NCBI GenBank assembly: GCA_022709625.1
Contig: JAKLIL010000001.1
Coordinates: 1-28,392, forward strand
Reading direction: 5' to 3'
Length of the DNA stretch: 28,392 nucleotides
DNA from: Verrucomicrobiota bacterium
GTDB lineage: Bacteria; Verrucomicrobiota; Kiritimatiellia; CAIQIC01; Lenti-01
Below the pieces are notes generated by a model. That model searched no databases. It had not been told where the DNA came from and saw only the letters and a list, made by a program, of their open reading frames with translations. Shown here in pieces: positions 3,151-28,052 of the stretch. The position numbers and the translations under genes were made by a program. Position 1 is the stretch's first letter. Each line of letters opens with the position of its first letter.

Positions 3151-3194
3151 GCGCTAATCCTTTCTGTTTCCAGATTGGCCGGAATCCATATGGC

Positions 3195-3230
3195 AAAGGC
3201 CGGGACAGCTCCGCGGCATCCCGGCCTTTT
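3195..3230. terminator. Probable intrinsic terminator between the pilin-like gene and glmS
   Basis: Perfect 11-bp inverted repeat AAAGGCCGGGA (3195-3205) / TCCCGGCCTTT (3219-3229); T-runs are short on both strands. Confidence 0.6.
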
Positions 3231-3247
3231 CATGGGCGGAAGGAGAA

Positions 3248-3862
3248 TTACGGATCAACCACGGTCAAGCCCGTGGAAAACCCCGAAGAGTTGAGGTTTT
3301 CGAGCGTCAATTGGTTGCCCTTCAGTGAAAACGCCGCGCCGCCTTTCTGCACGACCACCAGTCCGGCATTGCCAAAAGGCACGTCGGCGGCACTCAAAGC
3401 CGTAAAGGCGGCCAAGGTGCCTTTGTAGTTCTTGGTTATCAGGAAGGCGGTTCCCTCGGGAGTGCCGTCCGTCATGTCCACCGTTAAACGCCACGCGTTG
3501 TTAGCGGCGGCGAATTGGGATTCATTGGTGGTTTTGGCGGGCGTGATCCCCTTGGCGGCGAAAAAGTCGTAGGACACGTTCATCACGCCGGACGTAACCA
3601 AGTTCTTGAAATACGCCGTTGAATTCGGCGAATTGCTGGTGGAGGGCCAGCCCGAGCTGCTGGCGCCCAGCACCGCGTTGTCCATTTGATTCGCAAACGC
3701 GGAGGTATAGATGTTTTTGCCGTTGGAAACGGTTTGAACCAGAGCCGCGCTCGTAAGCGCTTTATTGACGGCCGGCACGAGAATGGCAGCCAACATGGCG
3801 ATGATGGCGATCACCACCAGCAGTTCGATGAGGGTAAAACCAAAGGCATAGCGCTTAGTCAT
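3248..3862 (-). CDS. Type IV pilin-like / T2SS pseudopilin-like protein with prepilin N-methylation site
   Basis: MTKRYAFG|FTLIELLVVIAIIAMLAAILVPAV is a class III signal peptide with G|F cleavage and E5; AAGGAG RBS 9 nt upstream. Confidence 0.88.
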   Translation of the reverse strand: MTKRYAFGFTLIELLVVIAIIAMLAAILVPAVNKALTSAALVQTVSNGKNIYTSAFANQMDNAVLGASSSGWPSTSNSPNSTAYFKNLVTSGVMNVSYDFFAAKGITPAKTTNESQFAAANNAWRLTVDMTDGTPEGTAFLITKNYKGTLAAFTALSAADVPFGNAGLVVVQKGGAAFSLKGNQLTLENLNSSGFSTGLTVVDP

Positions 3863-3894
3863 TTCACATGTCTCCTTATGACAACTCTGATGGC

Positions 3895-3922
3895 ATCATA
3901 CGCCGTTGGGACGGCGAGTCAA
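3895..3922 (-). promoter_or_regulatory. Sigma70-type promoter for the pilin-like gene
   Basis: Minus strand reads TTGACT-N16-TATGAT, ending 32 nt before the ATG. Confidence 0.6.
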
Positions 3923-3954
3923 CCCTCCAACCATCCTAATTTCGCCGCCGCATT

Positions 3955-4422
3955 TCAATAGGCCGTAGCCGTCCCCGGAAAAAATCCGTGTACAAACAGC
4001 GCCATGGCGATGCCCAGCACGGCGCCCATGAGGACTTCCAGACGCGTATGGCCCAGAAATTCCACCAGTTTTTCCGGAGAGAACTTGTGGTTTCGGTAAA
4101 AGTCTTCCGCCATCTGGTTCAGCAACCGCGCCTGCACCCCGGCGGCGCGCCGCACGCTCTGGGCATCGATCATGATCAGCGCCAGCACGCCCAGCGCCAC
4201 GGCGAACACGGCCGAACCGAAACCCGCACGCAGGCCCACCGACATGGCGCACGCCGCCGCGGAGGCCGTATGGGAACTGGGCATACCCCCCAACCGGAAG
4301 AGAAAACCGTAATCGAACTTCTTTTCGCGGAGCGCAAAGGTGAACAGCTTGATGAATTGGGCTACCAGCCAGCTGGCCACCGCCGCCACGACTGTGACAT
4401 TGTTGACAAGATCATGAAACAT
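3955..4422 (-). CDS. Divergent PAP2 family membrane protein (DUF212/YuiD-like)
   Basis: 155 aa hydrophobic protein with AQFIK, GGMPSSH, DAQSVRRAAG.QA.LLN and GHTRLEV.GA.LG family motifs. Confidence 0.9.
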   Translation of the reverse strand: MFHDLVNNVTVVAAVASWLVAQFIKLFTFALREKKFDYGFLFRLGGMPSSHTASAAACAMSVGLRAGFGSAVFAVALGVLALIMIDAQSVRRAAGVQARLLNQMAEDFYRNHKFSPEKLVEFLGHTRLEVLMGAVLGIAMALFVHGFFPGTATAY

Positions 4423-17667: not shown

Positions 17668-17902
17668 TCCAACGTGTTTGCAGCGCGCAAATCTGCGGGC
17701 GTTTTTACGCTACCCCATCCGCCCCGACAAGCAAAAATCCATTTTCCGCGCACCGGCGGGACCTCCGGACCTCGGGACGACGGTTTGCATTCCCTTTGTT
17801 TCCTGCTTCAGGTTGCCGGCCGTCCATTTCGACATTGGATAGGGCCCTCTTTCCGCCTCCGCTATTGCGACGACGTTCGATTGGGTGTATCAAACTGCCC
17901 GC

Positions 17903-19288
17903 ATGTCCCTGCCGCATCCAACCGAAACCATTGCCGCCATCGCCACCGCCCCCGGTACAGGCGCCATCGCCATCGTCCGCCTCTCGGGCCCCGACGCCTT
18001 GGCCTTGGCCGATCGAATTTTCATTTGTCCCGCGCCGCGCCCCTCCCAACGCCCACCGGGCACTTTTGTTCATGGTCAAGCGGTGGCGCCATCTTCCGGC
18101 GAGGTCTTGGACGACGCCTTGTTGCTTGTTTTCCATGCTCCGCACTCCTACACGGGCGAAAATTCAATCGAAATCCAATGCCATGGCGGTTCGCAAGCCG
18201 CCCAGCGCATCCTCGCCGCGCTTTTTTCCATTGGCGCGCGCCAGGCGGAGCCCGGCGAATTCACCAAACGTGCGTTTTTGAACGGAAAGATCGACCTGAC
18301 CCAGGCCGAAGCCGTAGCCGATCTCATCCACGCCCGTTCCGAGCGCGCCGCCCGCCTCGCCTCGGCCCAACTTGCCGATGCGCTCGGAATCCGGATTCGC
18401 GGCATTTACGACGACTTGCTGGGCGTTACCGCCGACATCGAAGCCATGCTGGATTTTCCAGATGATGAACTTCCCCAACATGTTCCGACAGAATTATCCG
18501 GCCGTCTCGAGGCTGTTTCCCGCCACATCCAGGCGCTGTTGGACACCTGGCAAGAAGGCCATGTCTTGCGCGAAGGAGCCCGAATCGTCATTGCGGGCGC
18601 CCCCAACGTCGGGAAATCCACCCTGTTGAACCTGCTGGCGGGTCGCGACCGCGCCATTACCTCCCCCCACCCCGGAACGACCCGGGACACGATCGAAGAG
18701 GCCGTGGTTCTGCTCGGATACCCCATGCAACTCATCGATACCGCCGGTTTGCGGGACGCGCCCGGCGAAATCGAACAAGAAGGCATTCGCCGCACCCACC
18801 GCGCCCTTTCCCAGGCGGATCTTTGCGTTTTCCTTGTGGATGCTTCCAACAATCTTTCCGCCGCCGAAAAAGCCTTCCTCGCGGCCCACAAACCCGAAAA
18901 ATTGCTCGTTTTGCTCAATAAAATCGATTTGGGACAAAAAATCAGGACGGAAAATCTACCCGGCCTCGATTCCATGCCGATTTCGCTCAAAATAGATCCT
19001 CCAATTGCCAAAATTTCCGGAAAAATCGTCCAAAAAATATTGCGCACACCCCATGGAAGCGATCATGCGGAGCTTGCAATATCCGCCAGGCATAGGAATC
19101 TGCTTCTTTCTGCCTTGGAGGATATTAAATTTGCATTACATCATCTGAAAACGGGCTCGGAGGCCGATTTTTTTCCTGCTGCCAACCATGCCAGGGCCGC
19201 TTTGGATCAAATCGGCTATGTTTTCGGAAAAAACTGTCAGGAAGAGTTGCTCGACGCCATATTTTCAAGGTTTTGTGTAGGAAAATAG
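17903..19288 (+). CDS. mnmE: tRNA U34 modification GTPase MnmE (TrmE)
   Basis: [30 protein letters not shown]1 [22 protein letters not shown] and C-terminal FCVGK. Confidence 0.97.
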
Positions 19289-19352
19289 TTGTCAGGATTT
19301 CCTATTGGCCTTTAATATTGTTATTTGTTTCACGATATTATCCCCCTCCCCC

Positions 19353-21260
19353 ATGAATTCGTTTGACGTGATTGTGATTGGAGGAGGACACGCCGGTTGC
19401 GAGGCGGCTTTAGCCGCTGCCCGGATGGGTGTCCGGACCGCCCTGGTCACAATGGATCTGCAAGCCGTAGCGCGCATGTCGTGCAATCCATCGATCGGCG
19501 GCATCGCCAAATCACACATGGTCTTCGAGCTCGACGCCTTGGGCGGCGAAATGGCGTTGAACACCGACTGCACTGGGATCCAGTTCCGGGTTCTGAACAT
19601 GCGCAAAGGCCCCGCCGTTCGCGCCAACCGGGTTCAATGCGACAAACCGGCCTATTCCGCGCGCATGCTTTCCGTTTTGCGGGCCCAGGAAAATCTAACT
19701 CTCGTCCAAGGCCAAATCGAAGCCGTCAAAGCCAAAAACGACCGAATTATTGGAGTTTTTGGGGAAAATACAGGGTTTTTGGAGGCAAAAGCCGTGGTTT
19801 TGACCGCCGGAACCTTTCTGCGCGGCAAAATCCACATCGGAAAATCCGCTGTTGGCGCCGGCCGGATCGGCGAACCATCCGAGGAACACCTCAGCCTCCA
19901 ATTGATGGATTTCGGCTTCAAAACGGAACGCCTCAAGACCGGAACGCCGCCGCGCCTACACAAAGACAGCATCGATTACGCAAAAATGCTTATTCAGCCA
20001 GGCGAACTCCCACCTCCGTTTTTTGGGTGGCGTTGCCGGTCGGCCCGCGGATTGTTCCACGTGGAACAATCCGGCCGCGGCCAGGTTTCCTCCGACCAGA
20101 CTTCTCCCCATGTTCCACATGGAACAATCGACCTGCCGCCATTCGCACCTTGGGTTCCCGGGGAGAACCAGATGCCCTGTTGGCTCACGCATACGAATTC
20201 CCGCACCTTGGAAATCATCCGCGCGCATCTTTCGGATTCCGCTTTGTACGGCGGACTGATCGAGGGCACGGGCGTCCGCTATTGTCCATCCATTGAAGAC
20301 AAAGTGGTTAAATTCGCCGAGAACGCAGAACATCATGTTTTTATCGAACCGGAGGGTCGGAATGTGTTGGAAGCCTATCCAAACGGCACATCCAACAGCC
20401 TGCCGGTCGACATACAGCTAGAGATGATTCGTTCCATATCGGGACTCGAGCGGGCGGAATTTCTGGCGCCTGGATATGCCATCGAATACGACTTTTTCGA
20501 TCCTACCCAATTGAATCCAACGCTTGAAACCAAGAGGGTTGGGGGACTGTATTTTGCGGGGCAGGTCAATGGCACGACTGGATATGAAGAAGCGGCTGCA
20601 CAAGGGTTTATGGCAGGCGCCAACGCCGCGTTGCATCTCATTGGCGGAAAGAGTATTACTTTGAAACGCCACGAGGCTTATATTGGCGTCATGATCGACG
20701 ATTTGGTGACGAAAGGGACGAACGAACCCTATCGGATGTTCACTTCGCGGGCGGAGCACCGGCTGCTGCTGCGACAGGACAATGCCGCATTTCGCCTGCA
20801 CGGCCAAGCGGGGGAAATCGGCATCGTGCCGGGAGAACGACTGCAGGAAATTCGAGCGATGGAGCGCGCCATTGCCGCCGAAATCGACCATCTCCGGCGC
20901 AGCCGCTACGAGGGTCTGTCTCTGGACCAATGGCTGAAGCGGCCGGAGACAACCTATGCGACGATGCCCACGCGGAAAGACGATTTGTCGGCCGAAGTCG
21001 TGGAGCAGGTCGAGTTCGAGGTGAAATACGCCGGGTACATCGAGCGGGAATTGCGCCAAATCGCCCGGGCGGAAGAAATCGCCCGCCACAAGATCCCAGC
21101 CGATCTCGACTACCACGCCATCGGCGCTTTGCGCTACGAATCCAGGGAAAAACTATCCGCCATTCGTCCGCACGATCTTGGCCAAGCCGCCCGAATCTCC
21201 GGCGTCACGCCGGCCGATATTGCCATCCTGTCGGTCTGGCTTAAAAAACATTCGAAATAG
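19353..21260 (+). CDS. mnmG: tRNA uridine-5-carboxymethylaminomethyl modification enzyme MnmG (GidA)
   Basis: [59 protein letters not shown] and [10 protein letters not shown]; carries an internal insertion. Confidence 0.98.
20053..20068. promoter_or_regulatory. parS centromere-like site 1 (within mnmG)
   Basis: TGTTCCACGTGGAACA, core of a perfect 26-bp palindrome at 20048-20073. Confidence 0.9.
20111..20126. promoter_or_regulatory. parS site 2 (within mnmG)
   Basis: TGTTCCACATGGAACA, one mismatch to site 1, starting 58 bp downstream. Confidence 0.8.
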
Positions 21261-21268
21261 CGAACGGG

Positions 21269-21320
21269 ATTTTATAATTTATGTAATATATTGTACTGCA
21301 ATATATTATATATTGGTTTA
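21269..21320. repeat. AT-rich element with three alternating copies of a TAATATATTG-like 10-mer
   Basis: TAATATATTG (21284-21293), its exact inverse CAATATATTA (21299-21308) and TTATATATTG (21306-21315), between convergent mnmG and the anti-sigma gene. Confidence 0.7.
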
Positions 21321-22025
21321 TCGTCCGAGAAGATGGACTGCCGCAAGAACGACGGGGCCGCCGGCATCGGCCCACCGGGCAGGAAACGCGCCGGGATGGG
21401 CGATCATGCGATTGAGTTTGGCCATGTGTTCCCGGGGCGGCAGGAGCAATTCGGAGCGAATGGACGCCGCCTGCCAATCCGAATCCGCGCGGGGCAATTG
21501 GGCGGCCGTCTTGACCGCCATGCCGGCCAAATACTGGGTGAATCCCGAACCTGAAAAGCCCTCGCCGAACCGACCGTCGATTCCTTGTTTCCGCAACAGG
21601 AATGCCATACCGGACCGAATGGCATGGGCATGGGGGCCATCCAGGGGCGAAGGCTCGCCATGCATCAGGGCTAACAACGCCAAGGCCGTCACGCCCACGT
21701 CGTACCGGGGACGCGCATTCCGGGGATCGCTGGACCAGGCGCCGTCGGACCGCTGGGTGGCCAACAAAAGTTCGCTGGGCCGGGCATCCGCAGACACCGG
21801 AACGGGACGGAAAAGCCGCCAACCGACCCCGACCAGCAGCGCGAAGACCGCCGCCGCGGCGGCCATTCGCGGCAACCAGGAATAGCGGGGCGGGGCAGGG
21901 CGGCGCAGGCGCGCCAATGTGCGCGTGGAGAAATCGGCGGATGGCTCCGGCGGGGTCTGGGCCCGCAGACGAGCCAGCAAGTCGGCGAACCGCGGTTCCG
22001 CGAGGGGATCAGGACTTCTCTTCAC
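21318..22025 (-). CDS. Putative membrane anti-sigma factor with extracytoplasmic prenyltransferase/squalene-cyclase (QW-like) repeats
   Basis: GTG start overlaps the sigma gene end by 17 nt. About 50-aa cytoplasmic segment (PEPSADFSTRTLARL), one TM helix (MAAAAAVFALLVGVGW), then LLATQRSDGAW and FLLRKQGIDGRF. Confidence 0.72.
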   Translation of the reverse strand: MKRSPDPLAEPRFADLLARLRAQTPPEPSADFSTRTLARLRRPAPPRYSWLPRMAAAAAVFALLVGVGWRLFRPVPVSADARPSELLLATQRSDGAWSSDPRNARPRYDVGVTALALLALMHGEPSPLDGPHAHAIRSGMAFLLRKQGIDGRFGEGFSGSGFTQYLAGMAVKTAAQLPRADSDWQAASIRSELLLPPREHMAKLNRMIAHPGAFPARWADAGGPVVLAAVHLLGR

Positions 22026-22560
22026 GGTAGATCTCCTGCAAGGCGGCCAGCGCATTGAACACGCGCGATTTGACCGTTCCCACGGGAATGCGGACGATGG
22101 CGGCGATTTCGTCGTAGGAAAGGCCCTGGTGCACGGCCAGCACGAGGACGTCGCGCAATTTGGGCGAGAGACGGTCCAGCGCGGCCTGGACGTCGAGCTG
22201 CCGCCGGAGCCGGCCGAGGCCGCCATCGGTGGCCGCTGGCATTTCCCGGCGATAGCGGTCGGCAAAGAGCTTGAACCGGACCTGCCGACGGACGTAATCG
22301 AGCCAAACATGGCGCGCCAAGGTGTAGAGGAACGTCGTGAACTTGGCCGTCGGCCGGTATTTTTTGCGATAGTTCCATAGGCGCAGAAACGTTTCCTGGG
22401 CGAGATCTTCGCCATGGGAAGAAGCGCCCAGCCGGACGAAATAGTTCAGGAGCGGCCGCTGATGGCGGAGAACCAATGCCCGGAAGGCCTCTTCGCGTTC
22501 TGCCCGCACCAAGGCCATCAAGGCAAAATCGTCTTTTTCAGGCTGGACGCCGGCGGACAT
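22009..22560 (-). CDS. ECF-family RNA polymerase sigma factor
   Basis: Region 2 EDLAQETFLRLW...KFTTFLYTLAR; region 4 LSPKLRDVLVL...LSYDEIAAIVRIPVGTVKSR. Start at MSAGV is inferred; 22617 is the alternative. Confidence 0.93.
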   Translation of the reverse strand: MSAGVQPEKDDFALMALVRAEREEAFRALVLRHQRPLLNYFVRLGASSHGEDLAQETFLRLWNYRKKYRPTAKFTTFLYTLARHVWLDYVRRQVRFKLFADRYRREMPAATDGGLGRLRRQLDVQAALDRLSPKLRDVLVLAVHQGLSYDEIAAIVRIPVGTVKSRVFNALAALQEIYREEKS

Positions 22561-22634
22561 AAGGCGGCATTGTTGACCCGGTTGCGCGCAAAAGCAACGT
22601 ATTTGGCACCGACGCACGGGACGGGACGAAACCT

Positions 22635-22662
22635 TGAACCCGGGGCGGGCCGGCGGCGTTTA
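22635..22662 (+). promoter_or_regulatory. Candidate ECF-type promoter for the secreted repeat protein
   Basis: TGAACC (22635-22640)-N16-CGTTTA (22657-22662) fits the AAC/CGT ECF pattern; no sigma70 -35 at 17 nt from the overlapping TATAAA. Confidence 0.55.
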
Positions 22663-22687
22663 TAAAAGCAGAATTGGCATACTTCTC

Positions 22688-22766
22688 GGGCGACACGGAG
22701 GTCGCCCCTCCGGTTGCGGAATCAGGCGACTACGGCCGTTCCGAAGGGTCGGGCTCCGTCCCGACC
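22688..22766 (+). ncRNA. Candidate structured 5' leader RNA (two hairpins with complementary loops)
   Basis: GGGCGAC-ACGGAG-GTCGCCC (22688-22707) and GGTCGGG-CTCCGT-CCCGACC (22747-22766); no known riboswitch consensus recognised. Confidence 0.45.
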
Positions 22767-22805
22767 AGAGATGGAAACTCGAATTTTTTAGAAAGGAAAA
22801 GCGGG

Positions 22806-23933
22806 ATGAAAAAGAGTCTGCTCGGGATCGTGGCGGGGGCGTTGTTCGCAGGCGCGGCGCAGGCGGGCTTGCCGGCGGAACTGCAGGCGGAAACGCGCGC
22901 CGCGATGGCCAAAGGCGCGGCTTGGCTGGCGGCCCAGCAGCAGCCGGACGGCCATTGGGCGCTGGCGGATTCGCCCGCGCTGACGGGGCTCGCGATGTGG
23001 GCGCTGCAGAAAACCGATCCCGCCGCCTACCAAGCCGCGATCAACCGCGCGCTGGTGTTCGTCCTGACCAGCGTTCAGGAAAACGGCTCGATTTGGCGCT
23101 CGCCGGCGATGCAGCGCAAGGGCGGAGGGCTGGCCAACTACAACACGGCGGTCTGCATGACGGCGCTGCACGCGCTGGGCCGGCCCGAACTGGTGCCCGT
23201 GGTGCAAAACGCACGGGCCTATCTGGCGAAAATGCAGTATCTCGGGCCGGATGCGTACCGCGGCGGCATGGGCTACGACGCGGACCAAGGCCGGCCCTAT
23301 ACGGATCTGTCCAATTCCTACATGGCCTACGAAGCGATGCGGCTCACCCAGGACGTCGAGGATTTGCGCGCCGCCGGCGAAGCCAAGGCCGATCTCGACT
23401 GGTCGGCCGTCCAGGAATTCCTGGCGCAGGTTCAAAATCTCCCGGGGGTCAACACGAACTCATGGGTCAGCGCGGACGCGGACAACCGCGGGGGCTTTGC
23501 CTATTCGCCGGGCGCCGGCGCGTCCGTCACGAACGCGGAGGGGAAGGTGACGCTGCGCTCGTACGGCAGCATGACCTATGCCGGCCTGCTGTCGCTGGTC
23601 TACGCGCAGGTGGACGCCCAGGACGGGCGCGTGCAGGCCGCGCAAGATTGGGCCCGCCGCCACTGGACGCTCGAGGAGAATCCCGGCATGGGCGCGGAAG
23701 GCCTGTACTACTTTTTCAACGTCCTGACCAAGTGCCTGGCGGCGGCGGGCAACGACACGCTGATGCTGCCCGACGGCCGCACGGTGGTCTGGCGCGAGGA
23801 AGTCGCACGCAAGCTAATTGGGTTGCAGAAGCCGGACGGATTCTGGGTCAACGAGAACAACCGGTGGTGGGAAGCCGATCCCAATCTCGTCACGGCCTAC
23901 ACGCTGCTCGCGCTCGCCGCCGCGCTGCCGTAG
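22806..23933 (+). CDS. Secreted prenyltransferase/squalene-oxidase-repeat (alpha/alpha barrel) protein
   Basis: Signal peptide MKKSLLGIVAGALFAGAAQA; repeats WLAAQQQPDGHW, FVLTSVQENGSI, YLAKMQ...GGMGY, FLAQVQ...GGFAY and KLIGLQKPDGFW; GAAAGGA RBS. Confidence 0.85.
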   Translation: MKKSLLGIVAGALFAGAAQAGLPAELQAETRAAMAKGAAWLAAQQQPDGHWALADSPALTGLAMWALQKTDPAAYQAAINRALVFVLTSVQENGSIWRSPAMQRKGGGLANYNTAVCMTALHALGRPELVPVVQNARAYLAKMQYLGPDAYRGGMGYDADQGRPYTDLSNSYMAYEAMRLTQDVEDLRAAGEAKADLDWSAVQEFLAQVQNLPGVNTNSWVSADADNRGGFAYSPGAGASVTNAEGKVTLRSYGSMTYAGLLSLVYAQVDAQDGRVQAAQDWARRHWTLEENPGMGAEGLYYFFNVLTKCLAAAGNDTLMLPDGRTVVWREEVARKLIGLQKPDGFWVNENNRWWEADPNLVTAYTLLALAAALP

Positions 23934-23961
23934 GCGCGCGCCGGCCAACCGCGGAACCCGA

Positions 23962-23989
23962 ATCAAAACGCCGCAGGCCTGAAGCGGCG
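23962..23989 (-). terminator. Intrinsic terminator after the alpha/beta hydrolase
   Basis: Minus strand CGCCGC-TTCAGGCCT-GCGGCG-TTTTGATT, in the gap between convergent genes. Confidence 0.55.
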
Positions 23990-24005
23990 GCGGTCCGTGC
24001 GGCCA

Positions 24006-24824
24006 TCACGGCTTGAAGGCCGCCAGAAATTCCTCGAGTTCGGCGTTGCCGGCGCCGCCGGGAACAAACCAGGAATTGTCGTCGTGCGGGCCCGCCAACA
24101 GGACGAACCGCTTGGGCTCCGCGGCCGCGGCATGGAGGATGCGGCCGCTCTGGAAAGGAATGACTTCGTCGGTCGGGCTGTGGCCGAACAGTTTGGGCAG
24201 GTCCTTGAGTTCGGCGGACGTTTTGGCGGCATCGTAGGAAACGGACAGCAGCCGGTCGATCGGCAGGTTGGGGTACAGCCGCCGGGCCATGTCGGCGGCG
24301 GAGGCAAAGGCGCCCTGCACGATCAGCGCGGCAACCGGCCGATCCTTGGCCAACTGGATGGCTACGGCCCCGCCCAGGGAATGGCCAAACGCCAGGATGG
24401 GCAGTTTGCGGCTCATGGCCTCGGCGGCCTCGAACGCCGCGCGGGCATCGGCGTAGAAGCCCTTTTCGGACGGACGGCCTTCGCTGCGGCCATAGCCGCG
24501 GTAATCCCACAGGAGCAGATTGAAGCCGCGCTTGACGAATTCCGGCGCCAGATGCGCGCTGCCGCCGACGTTGCTGCCGTTGCCGTGGCAGAACACGACG
24601 GTGCCGCGCGGCCGATTGGCGGGAATCCACCACCCGGTCAGGGACGTGCCGTCGGCCGAGAGGAATTGCACGTCCTGGTACCGCAGTTGGAAATGGGCGG
24701 GGGTGACCGCAATGTCGGGCGCGGGCAGATACAGGAGGCTGTACTCGGACCGCCGCAGATAGATCCAGCCGGCCGCCAGGCCCACGACCAGCAGGAACGC
24801 CAGGGATCCGAGTGTTTTTTTCAT
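24006..24824 (-). CDS. Membrane-anchored alpha/beta hydrolase (ABHD13/Bem46-like)
   Basis: N-terminal TM helix; FCHGNG, WDYRGYG.SEG.PSE.G.Y.DA, nucleophile GHSLG, TDEVIP and GPHDD; 3' part of ORF 24006..26090. Confidence 0.9.
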   Translation of the reverse strand: MKKTLGSLAFLLVVGLAAGWIYLRRSEYSLLYLPAPDIAVTPAHFQLRYQDVQFLSADGTSLTGWWIPANRPRGTVVFCHGNGSNVGGSAHLAPEFVKRGFNLLLWDYRGYGRSEGRPSEKGFYADARAAFEAAEAMSRKLPILAFGHSLGGAVAIQLAKDRPVAALIVQGAFASAADMARRLYPNLPIDRLLSVSYDAAKTSAELKDLPKLFGHSPTDEVIPFQSGRILHAAAAEPKRFVLLAGPHDDNSWFVPGGAGNAELEEFLAAFKP

Positions 24825-24829
24825 CCCGC

Positions 24830-25957
24830 CTATACTTCCAACGTTTTCGGGAAGCTGGCGAGGATTTTGTAGCCGGCGGGGGTGACGGCCACGACGTCTT
24901 CGAGGCGCACGCCGCCCACGCCGGGCAGATACAGGCCCGGCTCGACGGTGACGACGTTGCCGGCGCGCAGCCGGCCGGGTTCGCGGCGCAGGCCCGGCGA
25001 TTCGTGCACGTCGAGGCCGATGCCGTGGCCGAGGCTGTGGATGAAGCCGCGCTCGCGCCCGGGCGGCGTCCAGCGCGTTTCGTAGCCGGCATCGCGGAAA
25101 TACGTCTCGACGGCGGCCTGGACGGAACGGCCGGCCACGCCCGGGCGGATCATGGCCAGCGCCAGCCGCTGGGCGCCGAGGACGGCGCGATACAGGCGGC
25201 GAATCCGGGCGGGGGCGCGCCCGCGCACCACCGTGCGCGTGATGTCGCCCCAATAGCCCGTGTCCTTGTCGCGCGGGAAAATATCGATCACGATGGGCAC
25301 GCCGGCGCGGAGCGGCCCGTGGCCGGCGTCGTGGGGCCGCGCGCCTTGCGGGCCGACGGCCACGATGGTATCGACGGCGGAACAGCCGTGTGCCCGCAGG
25401 GTTTGCTCGATGAGGTCCTTGAGGATTTCGGAGGTGAGAAGTTTTCCTCCGCGCAGCAGGCGGCCCGGCGCAGATATTTTCGCGGCGCGGATGGCCTGGA
25501 TGGCGGCACGCATGGCGGCGACGGCGGCGCGCTGCGCTTTGGCGAGGCACGCGATTTCGCGCGCGGTTTTCACGGCGCGCCGCGGAAAAGCGGGTTGCTC
25601 CGCCAGCCGGACCCGTACGCCGCCCCGTTCGAGCGCGCGGGCGATGCCCAGCGGAAAATACGGGCCGGCCCGCACGGTGCGCAAACCCAGCCGGCGCGCG
25701 AGCGCCAGCGCCTGGGCGCCCAAGCCACGCGGGCCGGGCGGAGCGTGCGCGAAGAGTTCGGCCGGCGTATGCAGGACCGCGGCGGGGCATGTCCGGCGCG
25801 CCCGCGCGGCCTCCAATGCGGACACCGCCAAATGGAGACGCGCACCATGCACCAGCAGCAGGAAGGGATCGGCCGCCGCGAGCCCCGTGGCATAGCGGAC
25901 GTCGTTTTCCTCCAAGCCTGTGGCCGCTAGAATGCGGGGTGCTGTTGATTTCTTCAT
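24830..25957 (-). CDS. Xaa-Pro aminopeptidase (M24B family)
   Basis: Metal ligands in IDIFPR...GDITRT, HSLGHGIGLDVHE, TVEPGLY and VRLED. Confidence 0.92.
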   Translation of the reverse strand: MKKSTAPRILAATGLEENDVRYATGLAAADPFLLLVHGARLHLAVSALEAARARRTCPAAVLHTPAELFAHAPPGPRGLGAQALALARRLGLRTVRAGPYFPLGIARALERGGVRVRLAEQPAFPRRAVKTAREIACLAKAQRAAVAAMRAAIQAIRAAKISAPGRLLRGGKLLTSEILKDLIEQTLRAHGCSAVDTIVAVGPQGARPHDAGHGPLRAGVPIVIDIFPRDKDTGYWGDITRTVVRGRAPARIRRLYRAVLGAQRLALAMIRPGVAGRSVQAAVETYFRDAGYETRWTPPGRERGFIHSLGHGIGLDVHESPGLRREPGRLRAGNVVTVEPGLYLPGVGGVRLEDVVAVTPAGYKILASFPKTLEV

Positions 25958-26231
25958 ATTTTACTGGCTTTCGAGCCGATCCGGGGTTGTTGATTGGCAG
26001 ATTTTCCGCGGATTTTCGGGCATTTTCAATGCCAAAAACGCCTGTCAAGTGCCGAAAAATCCGTTTTCCGCAAAAACAGGGGCCCACCACGTATTGACAT
26101 GGCTGAAATCATCCATCCCATATCTGGTTGTCCATCAGAAAAAACGGGATTCCAGCGAGGTTGGGGCTTGTCCATTCGCGGATGGGCCACTAGGGTCGGG
26201 ACCGTTTTCGGGGCTGAAGACCGGAAAGCGG

Positions 26232-26252
26232 TTGTTCACAAGTTGTGGATAA
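26232..26252. promoter_or_regulatory. Inverted pair of DnaA boxes upstream of dnaA
   Basis: TTGTTCACA (26232-26240, one mismatch to TTWTNCACA) and perfect TGTGGATAA (26244-26252). Confidence 0.8.
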
Positions 26253-26382
26253 GTGGTCGGAAGCCCCTGTCTGCCGAGTCCGAATGGATGTCGGCGGGTG
26301 GGTTGCGGACGGAGAAATTTGAATTGTGCCGGCGTGCCCGCCATGCGAGAGTGGCAGGTCGAGGCAGGAAGAGGATCTTTCG

Positions 26383-27756
26383 GTGGAAGCGAACAAGGCG
26401 AAGCAGATTTGGGCGAAAGCCTGCGAATACCTCTCGTCCGCGATTTCCGCGGACATCTACAATCGCTGGATCGGCGTGATCGCGGCGACGGGCGACGACA
26501 AGGCCGGCCAATTGACGTTGACGGTGCCGAACGGATTCTACCAGGACTGGCTGGAAGAGCACTACCTGCCGCTGATCCGCAAGGCGCTGGGGATTTCGGA
26601 CCTGGACCATCTCGCCATCGTCTTCATGGTGGACGGCTCGCGGCAAGCCGCGGAAACCACGGACAAGGCGGGGGAGGAAAAGGAAAAGCCGGCGAAAGCC
26701 CGGATCGTGAAATCGTACAACGCGGGGGCGGCGCTCAATCCGCGGCACACGTTCGACAACTTCGTGGTCGGACCCTCGAACACGTTCGCGCACGCGGCGG
26801 CGCTGGCGGTGGTGGATTCGCCGGGACGCGCCTACAACCCGCTGTTCATCCACGGCGGCACGGGGCTGGGGAAGACGCACCTGATCCAGGCGATGGGCCA
26901 GGCGCTTCTCCAGCGGGGCAAGGGGACGGTGTGCTACACCACTTGCGAAACCTTCACCAACGAGTTCATCCAGGCAGTCCAGCAGCACGAAATTTCGGGC
27001 TTCCGGAAAAAATACCGCCACATCGACCTGCTCCTGATCGACGACGTCCATTTCCTCGCCAGCAAGGAAGGCATCCAGGAGGAATTCTTCCACACCTTCA
27101 ATTCGCTCCACCAAAACCAGAAGCAGATCGTGATGACGAGCGACCGGCCCATCGGCGAAATCGCCAACCTGCAGAAGCGCCTCGTGTCGCGCTTCGAATG
27201 GGGGCTGGTGACGGAAATGGAGATGGTGGACCTCGAGACCCGGGTGGCGATCCTGCGGCGGAAACGCGAGGAACTCCGGCTGCAGCTGGAAGATCCCGCG
27301 CTGTTTTTCATCGCCCAGCACGTGAAGTCCAACATCCGCAAGCTCGAAGGCGCCCTCCTGCGCGCGGCGTCGTACGCCTCCCTGACCCGCAAGCCGCTGA
27401 CGGCGGAATCGCTGGAATACCTTCTGCGCGACACCATCGAACAGGAAAACCAAAACGCCCTGACCATCGAGGGCATCCAGCGGATGGTCGCGGAATACTA
27501 CGACATCCGCCTGGGCGACATGACCAGCAAGCAGCGCCCGCAGAACATCGCGTTCCCGCGGCAGGTGGCGATGTACCTCTGCCGGGAAATGACCGACCAG
27601 TCCCTGCCGGCGATCGGGAATTCGTTTGGCCGGAACCACGCGACCGTCATCCACGCCCACCGCACCGTCGGCGGGAAAATGAAGACGGACCCGAACCTGC
27701 GGCAAACCATCCTCTCGCTGCAGCAGCGCCTGGGCGGAGCCACCGCCCCGGCCTAG
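26383..27756 (+). CDS. dnaA: Chromosomal replication initiator DnaA
   Basis: GTG start after GAGGA. Motifs FDNFVVG.SN, AYNPLFIHGGTGLGKTHL, LLLIDDV, QEEFFHTFN, RLVSRF, NIRKLEGAL and PRQVAMYL. Confidence 0.98.
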   Translation: MEANKAKQIWAKACEYLSSAISADIYNRWIGVIAATGDDKAGQLTLTVPNGFYQDWLEEHYLPLIRKALGISDLDHLAIVFMVDGSRQAAETTDKAGEEKEKPAKARIVKSYNAGAALNPRHTFDNFVVGPSNTFAHAAALAVVDSPGRAYNPLFIHGGTGLGKTHLIQAMGQALLQRGKGTVCYTTCETFTNEFIQAVQQHEISGFRKKYRHIDLLLIDDVHFLASKEGIQEEFFHTFNSLHQNQKQIVMTSDRPIGEIANLQKRLVSRFEWGLVTEMEMVDLETRVAILRRKREELRLQLEDPALFFIAQHVKSNIRKLEGALLRAASYASLTRKPLTAESLEYLLRDTIEQENQNALTIEGIQRMVAEYYDIRLGDMTSKQRPQNIAFPRQVAMYLCREMTDQSLPAIGNSFGRNHATVIHAHRTVGGKMKTDPNLRQTILSLQQRLGGATAPA

Positions 27757-28052
27757 CGATGCGGCGCCGATGCCCGACCCTCGCCGTTCCAGTGCGGGGC
27801 CGTTTGCCGGCGGGAAACGTGCATAACGCCGTGGCAACCCCAGGAGCGCCTGTGGAAAACCGGCGGAAGTTGTGGGCATGTCCGGATACGGGGGGCGGAC
27901 CCACAGGGGTGGGGGGTGGTTTTCGACAGTCGAAAAACCGGTTTCAGGGCCTGTGGGGCGATTCTGGGCTTGATGTTCACACAACCCACAGGACATACTG
28001 ATACGGATTTATTTCTTTATAGATTGAAATCCCAGCAACAGGAGTCGGCGGA
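27757..28052. other. Probable oriC unwinding region (dnaA-dnaN spacer)
   Basis: TGTGGAAAA (27851-27859, consensus box); near-boxes at 27818, 27920, 27973 and 27982; AT-rich ATTTATTTCTTTATAGATTGAAAT (28007-28030). Confidence 0.75.

Follow-up and report, generated by a model that had tools for sequence, protein, structure and literature searches.

A shortened, putative toroid anti-sigma factor and a candidate ECF-type promoter at an exported barrel gene of Kiritimatiellia

What does an extracytoplasmic function (ECF) sigma factor control when its membrane-bound partner seems to be built from the same repeats as the exported protein encoded on its other side? The question arises in a 28,392-nucleotide (nt) stretch of DNA, here called the window, from a Verrucomicrobiota bacterium of the Kiritimatiellia (contig JAKLIL010000001.1 of assembly GCA_022709625.1), where an ECF sigma gene, an anti-sigma-like gene and a divergent gene for an exported barrel protein lie side by side. 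A first-pass annotation had read this trio as a signalling loop at the cell surface, in which the outer domain of the anti-sigma factor binds the secreted barrel, or the same ligand as the barrel, and the sigma factor induces the barrel. The answer reached here differs in part: the locus is probably a compacted ECF module specific to one lineage, with a short toroid anti-sigma factor and a sigma factor that would read a promoter motif at the barrel gene and at a receptor gene.

The window is the entire contig C1 of a 2.26-Mb metagenome-assembled genome that is 69% complete. For comparison, 201 genomes of a single phylum were sampled, one for each species, with families labelled f1, f7, f8, f10 and so on; f1 is the family of the window. 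Open reading frames (ORFs) in loci fetched from elsewhere are rough calls made in the present analysis.

Results

An ECF sigma gene overlaps a shortened anti-sigma-like gene

The sigma factor and its partner are encoded on the minus strand by the following features.

22009..22560, minus strand: ECF (group IV) sigma factor, 183 aa (Pfam and TIGR02937)
22009..22025, minus strand: 17 nt shared by the end of the sigma gene and the start (GTG) of the anti-sigma gene (sequence)
21318..22025, minus strand: shortened anti-sigma-like membrane protein, 235 aa (family and colinearity with long forms)
21876..22025, minus strand: its predicted cytoplasmic part, residues 1-50, with helices at 11-21 and 32-40 (AlphaFold2 model, alignment with long forms)
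21813..21875, minus strand: its single predicted transmembrane helix, residues 51-71 (AlphaFold2; hydrophobic stretch after Arg-rich residues)
21321..21794, minus strand: its predicted periplasmic partial alpha/alpha toroid, residues 78-235, about eight helices including two QW-like repeats (AlphaFold2, VIA-align, AlphaFold database and profiles)

The sigma factor matches Sigma70_r2 (PF04542, E 4e-15) and Sigma70_r4_2 (PF08281, E 5e-14) in Pfam, with no match to region 3, and scores 83.7 bits against the sigma70-ECF model TIGR02937 (cut-off 42.9). It has the sigma-2 and sigma-4 regions only, in a protein of the 180-200 residues or so that mark the ECF type; its NCBIfam equivalog matches all fall far under their cut-offs. 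Orthologues are present in single copy in 29 of the 201 sampled genomes, every one from the same class, and f1 genomes each carry about 6-8 genes of the sigma-70 family. At one related locus (L004, 2891-5017) a public call of a 708-aa 'sigma' is an artefact: the frame runs antisense through the barrel gene (3185-4375, minus strand) before it reaches the true 183-aa sigma.

As first proposed, the sigma gene overlaps a gene for an anti-sigma-like protein with one membrane helix in its AlphaFold2 model. The GTG at 22025 is taken as the start of that gene because 40 aligned homologues all begin with MK..PDPL. The resulting 17-nt overlap is identical at three related loci (L001, L002 and L004), and overlaps of 11-14 nt were found at loci with a long-form anti-sigma gene, as judged from the rough ORF calls; the 17-nt overlap implies that translation of the sigma factor is probably coupled to that of its partner. 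Lying directly downstream of a sigma gene and encoding a single membrane helix, the second gene has the arrangement typical of class I (ZAS) anti-sigma factors.

The short form makes up a family of about 140 clusters, mostly of 233-245 aa and at 47-72% identity; its homologues, like those of the barrel, are labelled Kiritimatiellia. Mean column identity is 65%, and 29 residues are invariant, on the cytoplasmic and the periplasmic side. D6, P7 and F32 of the cytoplasmic part are among these, and F13, L20, R21 and Q23 are nearly invariant. The HxxxCxxC zinc motif, which the first-pass annotation had already noted to be lacking here, is indeed absent: Pfam gives no match to zf-HC2 (PF13490), and no His/Cys motif appears in the family alignment. 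A match to the NCBIfam anti-sigma model NF052375 (E 0.0015, 18.6 bits) lies under its cut-off of 100, and no FecR domain was matched in short or long anti-sigma forms.

The short form is truncated relative to zinc-finger anti-sigma factors

A profile search of 1.8 billion representatives returned 3677 relatives of the short form. Those beyond the short forms measure 416-460 aa; zf-HC2 was found in most of those scanned, and SQHop_cyclase_C or Prenyltrans in all that were scanned of that length. The two long forms that were read in sequence both have HxxxCxxC, and the long-form profile matches RsiW (E 2.3e-5) and RslA (E 7.6e-5), two anti-sigma factors of known structure. Aligned with these long forms, the window protein is colinear: missing are the first 40 residues or so, with the zinc motif, and about 170 residues from the middle of the toroid; kept are two helices ahead of the membrane, the first repeats and a C-terminal RW..GG motif. 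The zinc motif is thus missing because the protein is truncated, and, by alignment with the long forms, just the last two helices of the four-helix class I anti-sigma domain have been kept. Judged by alignment, the membrane protein is a cut-down relative of putative anti-sigma factors in which one membrane helix links a full toroid to a zinc finger.

Among the 201 genomes, the form of about 235 aa occurs in f1 only. In the other families of Kiritimatiellia, the orthologous sigma gene is followed by a gene for a long anti-sigma factor of about 350-445 aa. Other shortened forms were found in metagenomes (248-312 aa) and in the sampled genome G113 (253 aa). A full-length toroid anti-sigma factor of genome G128 (L018, 5806-7056) also has no HxxxCxxC, and hence the family has lost its zinc motif on more than one occasion. 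At a locus of genome G026, toroid-repeat proteins are clustered: about 2 kb from a sigma/long-anti-sigma pair lies a gene for a 777-aa protein (L017, 9412-11742) with weak matches to both toroid profiles (E 1e-7 to 1e-9).

Judged by domain content, the sensor type is not rare but abundant: the databases have hundreds of anti-sigma-type proteins with a toroid joined through one membrane helix to a zinc finger. The first-pass annotation knew of no characterised anti-sigma factor with such a sensor; likewise, no characterisation of one came up in our search of the literature on anti-sigma factors in connection with prenyltransferase, squalene or SQHop_cyclase. Neither the ECF reclassification paper nor the paper on class I anti-sigma factors mentions a toroid sensor domain in its main text.

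The outer domain is a predicted partial toroid

The two QW-like repeats that had been picked out by eye in the outer domain (LLATQRSDGAW, residues 86-96, and FLLRKQGIDGRF, residues 142-153) stand above chance. Residues 82-162 match the squalene cyclase model TIGR01787 of NCBIfam with E 5e-6, and the short-form family profile matches squalene-hopene cyclase 2sqc with E 9e-7. A profile check of this C-terminus, which the first-pass annotation had suggested, therefore succeeds with TIGR01787 and with the 2sqc profile and fails with Pfam, where SQHop_cyclase_C alone reaches 14.5 bits, under the threshold of 26.1.

The AlphaFold2 model of the protein has a mean predicted local distance difference test score (pLDDT) of 81, with 81-97 for each 10-residue block over residues 81-235. 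VIA-align places the sensor nearest to drimenyl diphosphate synthase (Z 9.7) and the thioester domain of complement C4b (Z 9.1), with middling Z for helical repeat proteins. Cluster matches in the AlphaFold database are nearly all annotated as 'Squalene cyclase C-terminal domain' proteins, and the best of them extend the alignment across the anti-sigma helix and the membrane helix. Foldseek against the PDB gave weak matches (E 0.1 or worse), with a faint structural echo of transcobalamin; the fold assignment is based on VIA-align, the AlphaFold database and the profile searches. With about eight helices, and some 170 residues fewer than the long forms, the sensor does not form a complete six-hairpin ring. 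These results support the assignment of the modelled outer domain to a partial toroid of the terpene-cyclase/prenyltransferase type. Gene identities, truncation and partial fold were all computed directly.

A predicted promoter motif at the barrel gene accompanies the sigma factor

The divergent gene and the sequence ahead of it contain three features.

22635..22660, plus strand: predicted ECF-type promoter of the barrel gene, -35 TGAACC at 22635-22640, 16-nt spacer, -10 CGTT at 22657-22660 (six-locus footprint)
22670..22775, plus strand: species-specific, hairpin-rich insertion, about 100 nt long, in the leader of the barrel gene (not in five related loci)
22806..23933, plus strand: exported single-domain (alpha/alpha)6 barrel protein, 375 aa, signal peptide residues 1-20 (homologues, AlphaFold2 and Foldseek)

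In an alignment of the region between the sigma and barrel genes from six f1 loci, GAACC is invariant and stands at a fixed distance from GCG(T/C)T, with a spacer of variable sequence. The element faces the barrel gene, and its -10 part reads CGTT in four loci and CGCT in two. From 17 instances, the consensus is TGAACc-N16-CGTTtaa. Transcription of the barrel gene would be predicted to begin some 7-10 nt past 22660.

Across Kiritimatiellia, the motif is distributed with the sigma factor. GAACC-N16-CGT occurs upstream of the barrel orthologue in 16 of the 27 genomes with the sigma factor and in 1 of the 25 without it, at a background frequency of 0.012 per 350 nt; when CGC or a spacer one nucleotide longer or shorter is allowed, 22 of the 27 sigma-positive genomes have it. 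The association is strong by Fisher's test (p 1.8e-5, a value that ignores relatedness and is hence overstated), and contrasts within the families f7, f8 and f10 all agree with it. Both the conservation of this candidate promoter and its occurrence together with the sigma factor were computed directly. By this distribution, the barrel gene would already have been a target before it became the neighbour of the sigma gene. The claim that the sigma factor controls the barrel gene is strengthened by the footprint in six loci and by this distribution, and on these grounds the sigma factor probably drives its divergent neighbour.

The barrel-leader insertion is missing from all five related loci, including one from a genome of the same genus. 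Contigs C194, C74 and C13 of the window's own genome contain 100% identical copies of 22 nt of it (22745-22766). The insertion has the look of a small palindromic repeat and not of a conserved riboswitch.

In other families the sigma pair faces a TonB-dependent receptor

Within f1, the order barrel/sigma/anti-sigma is kept at all loci examined (four of four genomes and three metagenomic contigs), usually beside mnmG and mnmE. The first-pass annotation had made co-conservation of the three genes a test of its reading; they are adjacent in f1 alone, and in every genome outside f1 where both could be located, the barrel gene lies on a different contig from the sigma pair. There its neighbours are varied (GDP-mannose dehydratase, sugar-nucleotide genes, glycosyltransferases, a SIS-domain protein, URO-D-like proteins and others), and no function of the barrel can be inferred from its neighbours in these families.

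The sigma pair itself lies elsewhere beside a TonB-dependent receptor gene, which in nine genomes from five families is the gene divergent from the sigma gene, sometimes after a TonB-like gene; of the 17 sampled genomes with a sigma and a receptor gene, 9 have the two side by side. The receptors most resemble haem receptors (TIGR01785, E 1e-53 to 1e-57, under the cut-off). They begin with the Plug domain, and no STN signalling domain was matched in them. Between the sigma gene and the divergent TonB-like or receptor genes of these other families stands GAAC(T/C)-N16-CG(T/C). In f1, where the receptor orthologue is unlinked, TGAAC-N16-CGTT lies just upstream of it in four of four genomes. One of these is the genome of the window, which has a partial orthologue of the haem-type receptor on contig C362 (1062-1841), with TGAACT-N16-CGTT 44 nt ahead of its GTG start.

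Several observations weigh against assigning the motif and its two genes to this sigma factor. The promoter rests on sequence, and the RNA matches to the locus, two weak ones of which one is an activated-sludge metatranscriptome contig spanning 23808-24000, carry no information on transcript starts. Genome-wide, TGAACY-N16-CGTT is not enriched (8 found, about 5 expected from shuffles), and the case therefore rests on the position and conservation of the motif. The strict motif was found three times, with about one expected. No further members of the regulon can be named from the motif by itself. In f1 there is no GAAC...CGT motif on the strand of the sigma gene, so the autoregulation usual for ECF sigma factors is not seen. 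Five sigma-positive genomes have no motif upstream of the barrel gene. In 48 sampled genomes the barrel family is present without the sigma factor, and so it does not depend on this factor. The window protein, moreover, has lost half of the class I anti-sigma domain. Finally, another ECF sigma factor of similar distribution, among the 6-8 or so sigma-70-family genes, could read the motif. As a separate observation, the third strict match in the genome, TGAACC-N15-GCGTT on the minus strand of contig C3 near 1437, falls outside any long open frame, and a scan of 21200-24100 with the sigma-70 consensus found no promoter.

These points give room to the alternative that survives best, namely that a rearrangement happened to put the sigma operon between the barrel gene and mnmG and that the motif is read by another ECF sigma factor or is no promoter. 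The confinement of the trio to f1, with the barrel elsewhere on other contigs among varied neighbours, would be expected of such an accident, as would a motif of the generic GAAC...CGT ECF type that is unenriched genome-wide and a barrel present in many genomes without this sigma factor. It would leave two results unexplained: the motif upstream of the barrel tracks the sigma factor, in the total count and in all three within-family contrasts, and in other families the same motif stands directly beside the sigma gene, facing the receptor. We regard accidental adjacency as unlikely.

The barrel and the sensor share a fold superfamily

The first-pass annotation was right in describing the divergent gene as one for a signal-peptide protein of QW-like repeats. 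Its product has a Sec-type signal peptide (MKK...AQA/G, the stroke marking the cleavage site) and the repeats quoted in that annotation, and its family profile matches squalene-hopene cyclase with E 9e-5. The homologues are many and close (4818 matches, with 75-88% identity among the top 120), and an orthologue, usually in single copy, is present in 76 of the 201 sampled genomes. The AlphaFold2 model shows one (alpha/alpha)6 barrel, with a mean pLDDT of only 71. In Foldseek it reaches a TM-score of about 0.55 to MmpH, to the single-domain cyclases 8pak and 8paj, to AprG and to MstE; about 375 columns align to single-domain barrels, with TM-scores of 0.53-0.61, as expected of a complete ring. 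The translations of barrel and sensor protein contain no catalytic DxDD motif.

How closely the two proteins resemble each other bears on the proposal that they form a feedback loop, with the partial toroid of the anti-sigma factor binding either the exported barrel or a small ligand common to the two. Direct comparison by BLASTP was not significant (E 0.29), and in its own genome the short-form profile found no second match, the barrel included, at E 0.01 or better. Profile-profile comparison with the barrel gave 53% probability for the short form (E 1.3e-4, 72 columns) and 97% for the long forms (E 1e-11, 205 columns). A search with hidden Markov models matched the long-form toroid to squalene-hopene cyclase with E 3.5e-20, a value not directly comparable with the profile-profile E 1e-11 to the barrel. 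By these profiles, sensor and barrel are members of one fold superfamily and not close paralogues; the specific resemblance that had been proposed comes down to the level of the superfamily. Complex prediction with sensor residues 78-235 and barrel residues 22-375 returned a score of 0.00, which speaks neither for nor against binding, and nothing in the present analysis supports binding between sensor and barrel or a ligand common to them.

A feedback loop would suit two periplasmic proteins of one fold superfamily, and the loss of the central toroid coincides in f1 with the move beside the barrel gene. There is also a precedent for a sensor that looks like its target, in RsgI with its carbohydrate-binding modules (PMC10328401, PMC6852018). 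Against this, no specific similarity was found, and the long-form toroid matches squalene-hopene cyclase at least as strongly as it matches the barrel, within the limits of comparing the two methods. Such a loop seems to us improbable.

Surroundings of the locus

On both sides (17885-21260 and 24006-28000), the locus is surrounded by conserved housekeeping genes, among them mnmE, mnmG and the genes of an M24 peptidase and an alpha/beta hydrolase. Two related contigs continue with dnaA, and so the locus probably lies close to the chromosomal origin.

Discussion

We hold it to be probable that this locus is a lineage-specific, compacted ECF module. The 183-aa ECF sigma factor would be co-translated with a single-pass anti-sigma factor that in relatives consists of a cytoplasmic zinc-finger domain and a full periplasmic toroid like that of terpene cyclases. 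Of this, the f1 protein retains only the final two helices on the cytoplasmic side, the membrane helix, two to three hairpins from the start of the toroid and its final helix pair. Its cytoplasmic helices, in residues 1-50 that we infer still bind the sigma factor, would tether it at the membrane. Ligand binding in the periplasm to what is left of the toroid, or proteolysis there of the kind seen in other membrane anti-sigma factors, could then set the sigma factor free. The freed sigma factor, this one rather than another of the ECF type, would then read TGAACc-N16-CGTTtaa promoters at two targets, the adjacent exported (alpha/alpha)6 barrel gene and the unlinked gene of the haem-type TonB-dependent receptor. 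In most other families, the sigma pair is divergent to the receptor gene; in f1, the pair would have moved beside a barrel gene that it already controlled. As to the signal, the haem-type receptor and the faint echo of transcobalamin lead us to guess at something tetrapyrrole-like.

Least probable of all is that the short protein is a decayed remnant that senses nothing, being a constitutive tether or non-functional, with the sigma factor controlled otherwise: zinc-finger helices and about 170 toroid residues are gone, but length and sequence are strongly conserved over some 140 clusters, the 17-nt overlap has been kept, the periplasmic domain is modelled with a confident fold, and the 29 invariant residues on both sides of the membrane argue against simple decay.

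The proposed module can be set beside several known systems. With the class I ZAS anti-sigma factors (RsiW, 5wuq; RslA, 3hug), it shares co-translation with an ECF sigma factor and a single membrane helix; the long relatives have zf-HC2 with HxxxCxxC, and the window protein is colinear with the stretch after the zinc motif. Unlike them, it is without the zinc motif and the first helices, and its extracytoplasmic domain is a predicted, truncated toroid of the terpene-cyclase type. The arrangement in relatives, with sigma and anti-sigma genes divergent to a TonB-like gene and a receptor with an ECF-type promoter, recalls FecI/FecR/FecA (PMC9249621), but the anti-sigma factor has no FecR domain, the receptor has no STN and, in the window's genome, the receptor is unlinked. 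In logic, the locus resembles that of RsgI, the anti-sigma-I factor of Clostridium thermocellum whose outer sensor is the same kind of module as in the exported proteins that are induced (PMC10328401, PMC6852018), in that the sensor resembles an exported target; RsgI differs in its sigma-I family, in sensor folds of the carbohydrate-binding, PA14 or glycoside-hydrolase-like kind, in its Gram-positive host and in having known ligands. Finally, sensor and barrel have the QW-like repeats and alpha/alpha toroid of class II terpene cyclases (2sqc, 7xq4, 8pak and MstE, 6sbb). Unlike those enzymes, both are without DxDD and both are extracytoplasmic, the sensor being part of a ring, and glycoside-hydrolase-like and AprG barrels are equally good matches for the exported barrel.

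A wider extension, to which we give little credence, would make the toroid anti-sigma factors an undescribed ECF route of the Planctomycetes-Verrucomicrobia-Chlamydiae (PVC) group. The ring would sense either the cargo of an STN-less haem-type receptor, tetrapyrrole-like or hydrophobic, or a homologous exported ring, and in f1 the cut-down ring would work with the barrel that it induces.

For the compacted module that we favour, the consequences are more immediate. An anti-sigma class that is uncharacterised yet abundant would gain a testable regulon, consisting of a sigma factor, the consensus TGAACc-N16-CGTTtaa and two targets, and the class would be tied to TonB-dependent uptake without the usual wiring through FecR and a signalling domain. 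With two cytoplasmic helices and a partial ring, the f1 protein may be a natural minimal anti-sigma factor and could give binding and structural studies a compact point of departure. The exported barrel protein, very conserved and PVC-wide, would thereby be given a regulatory context.

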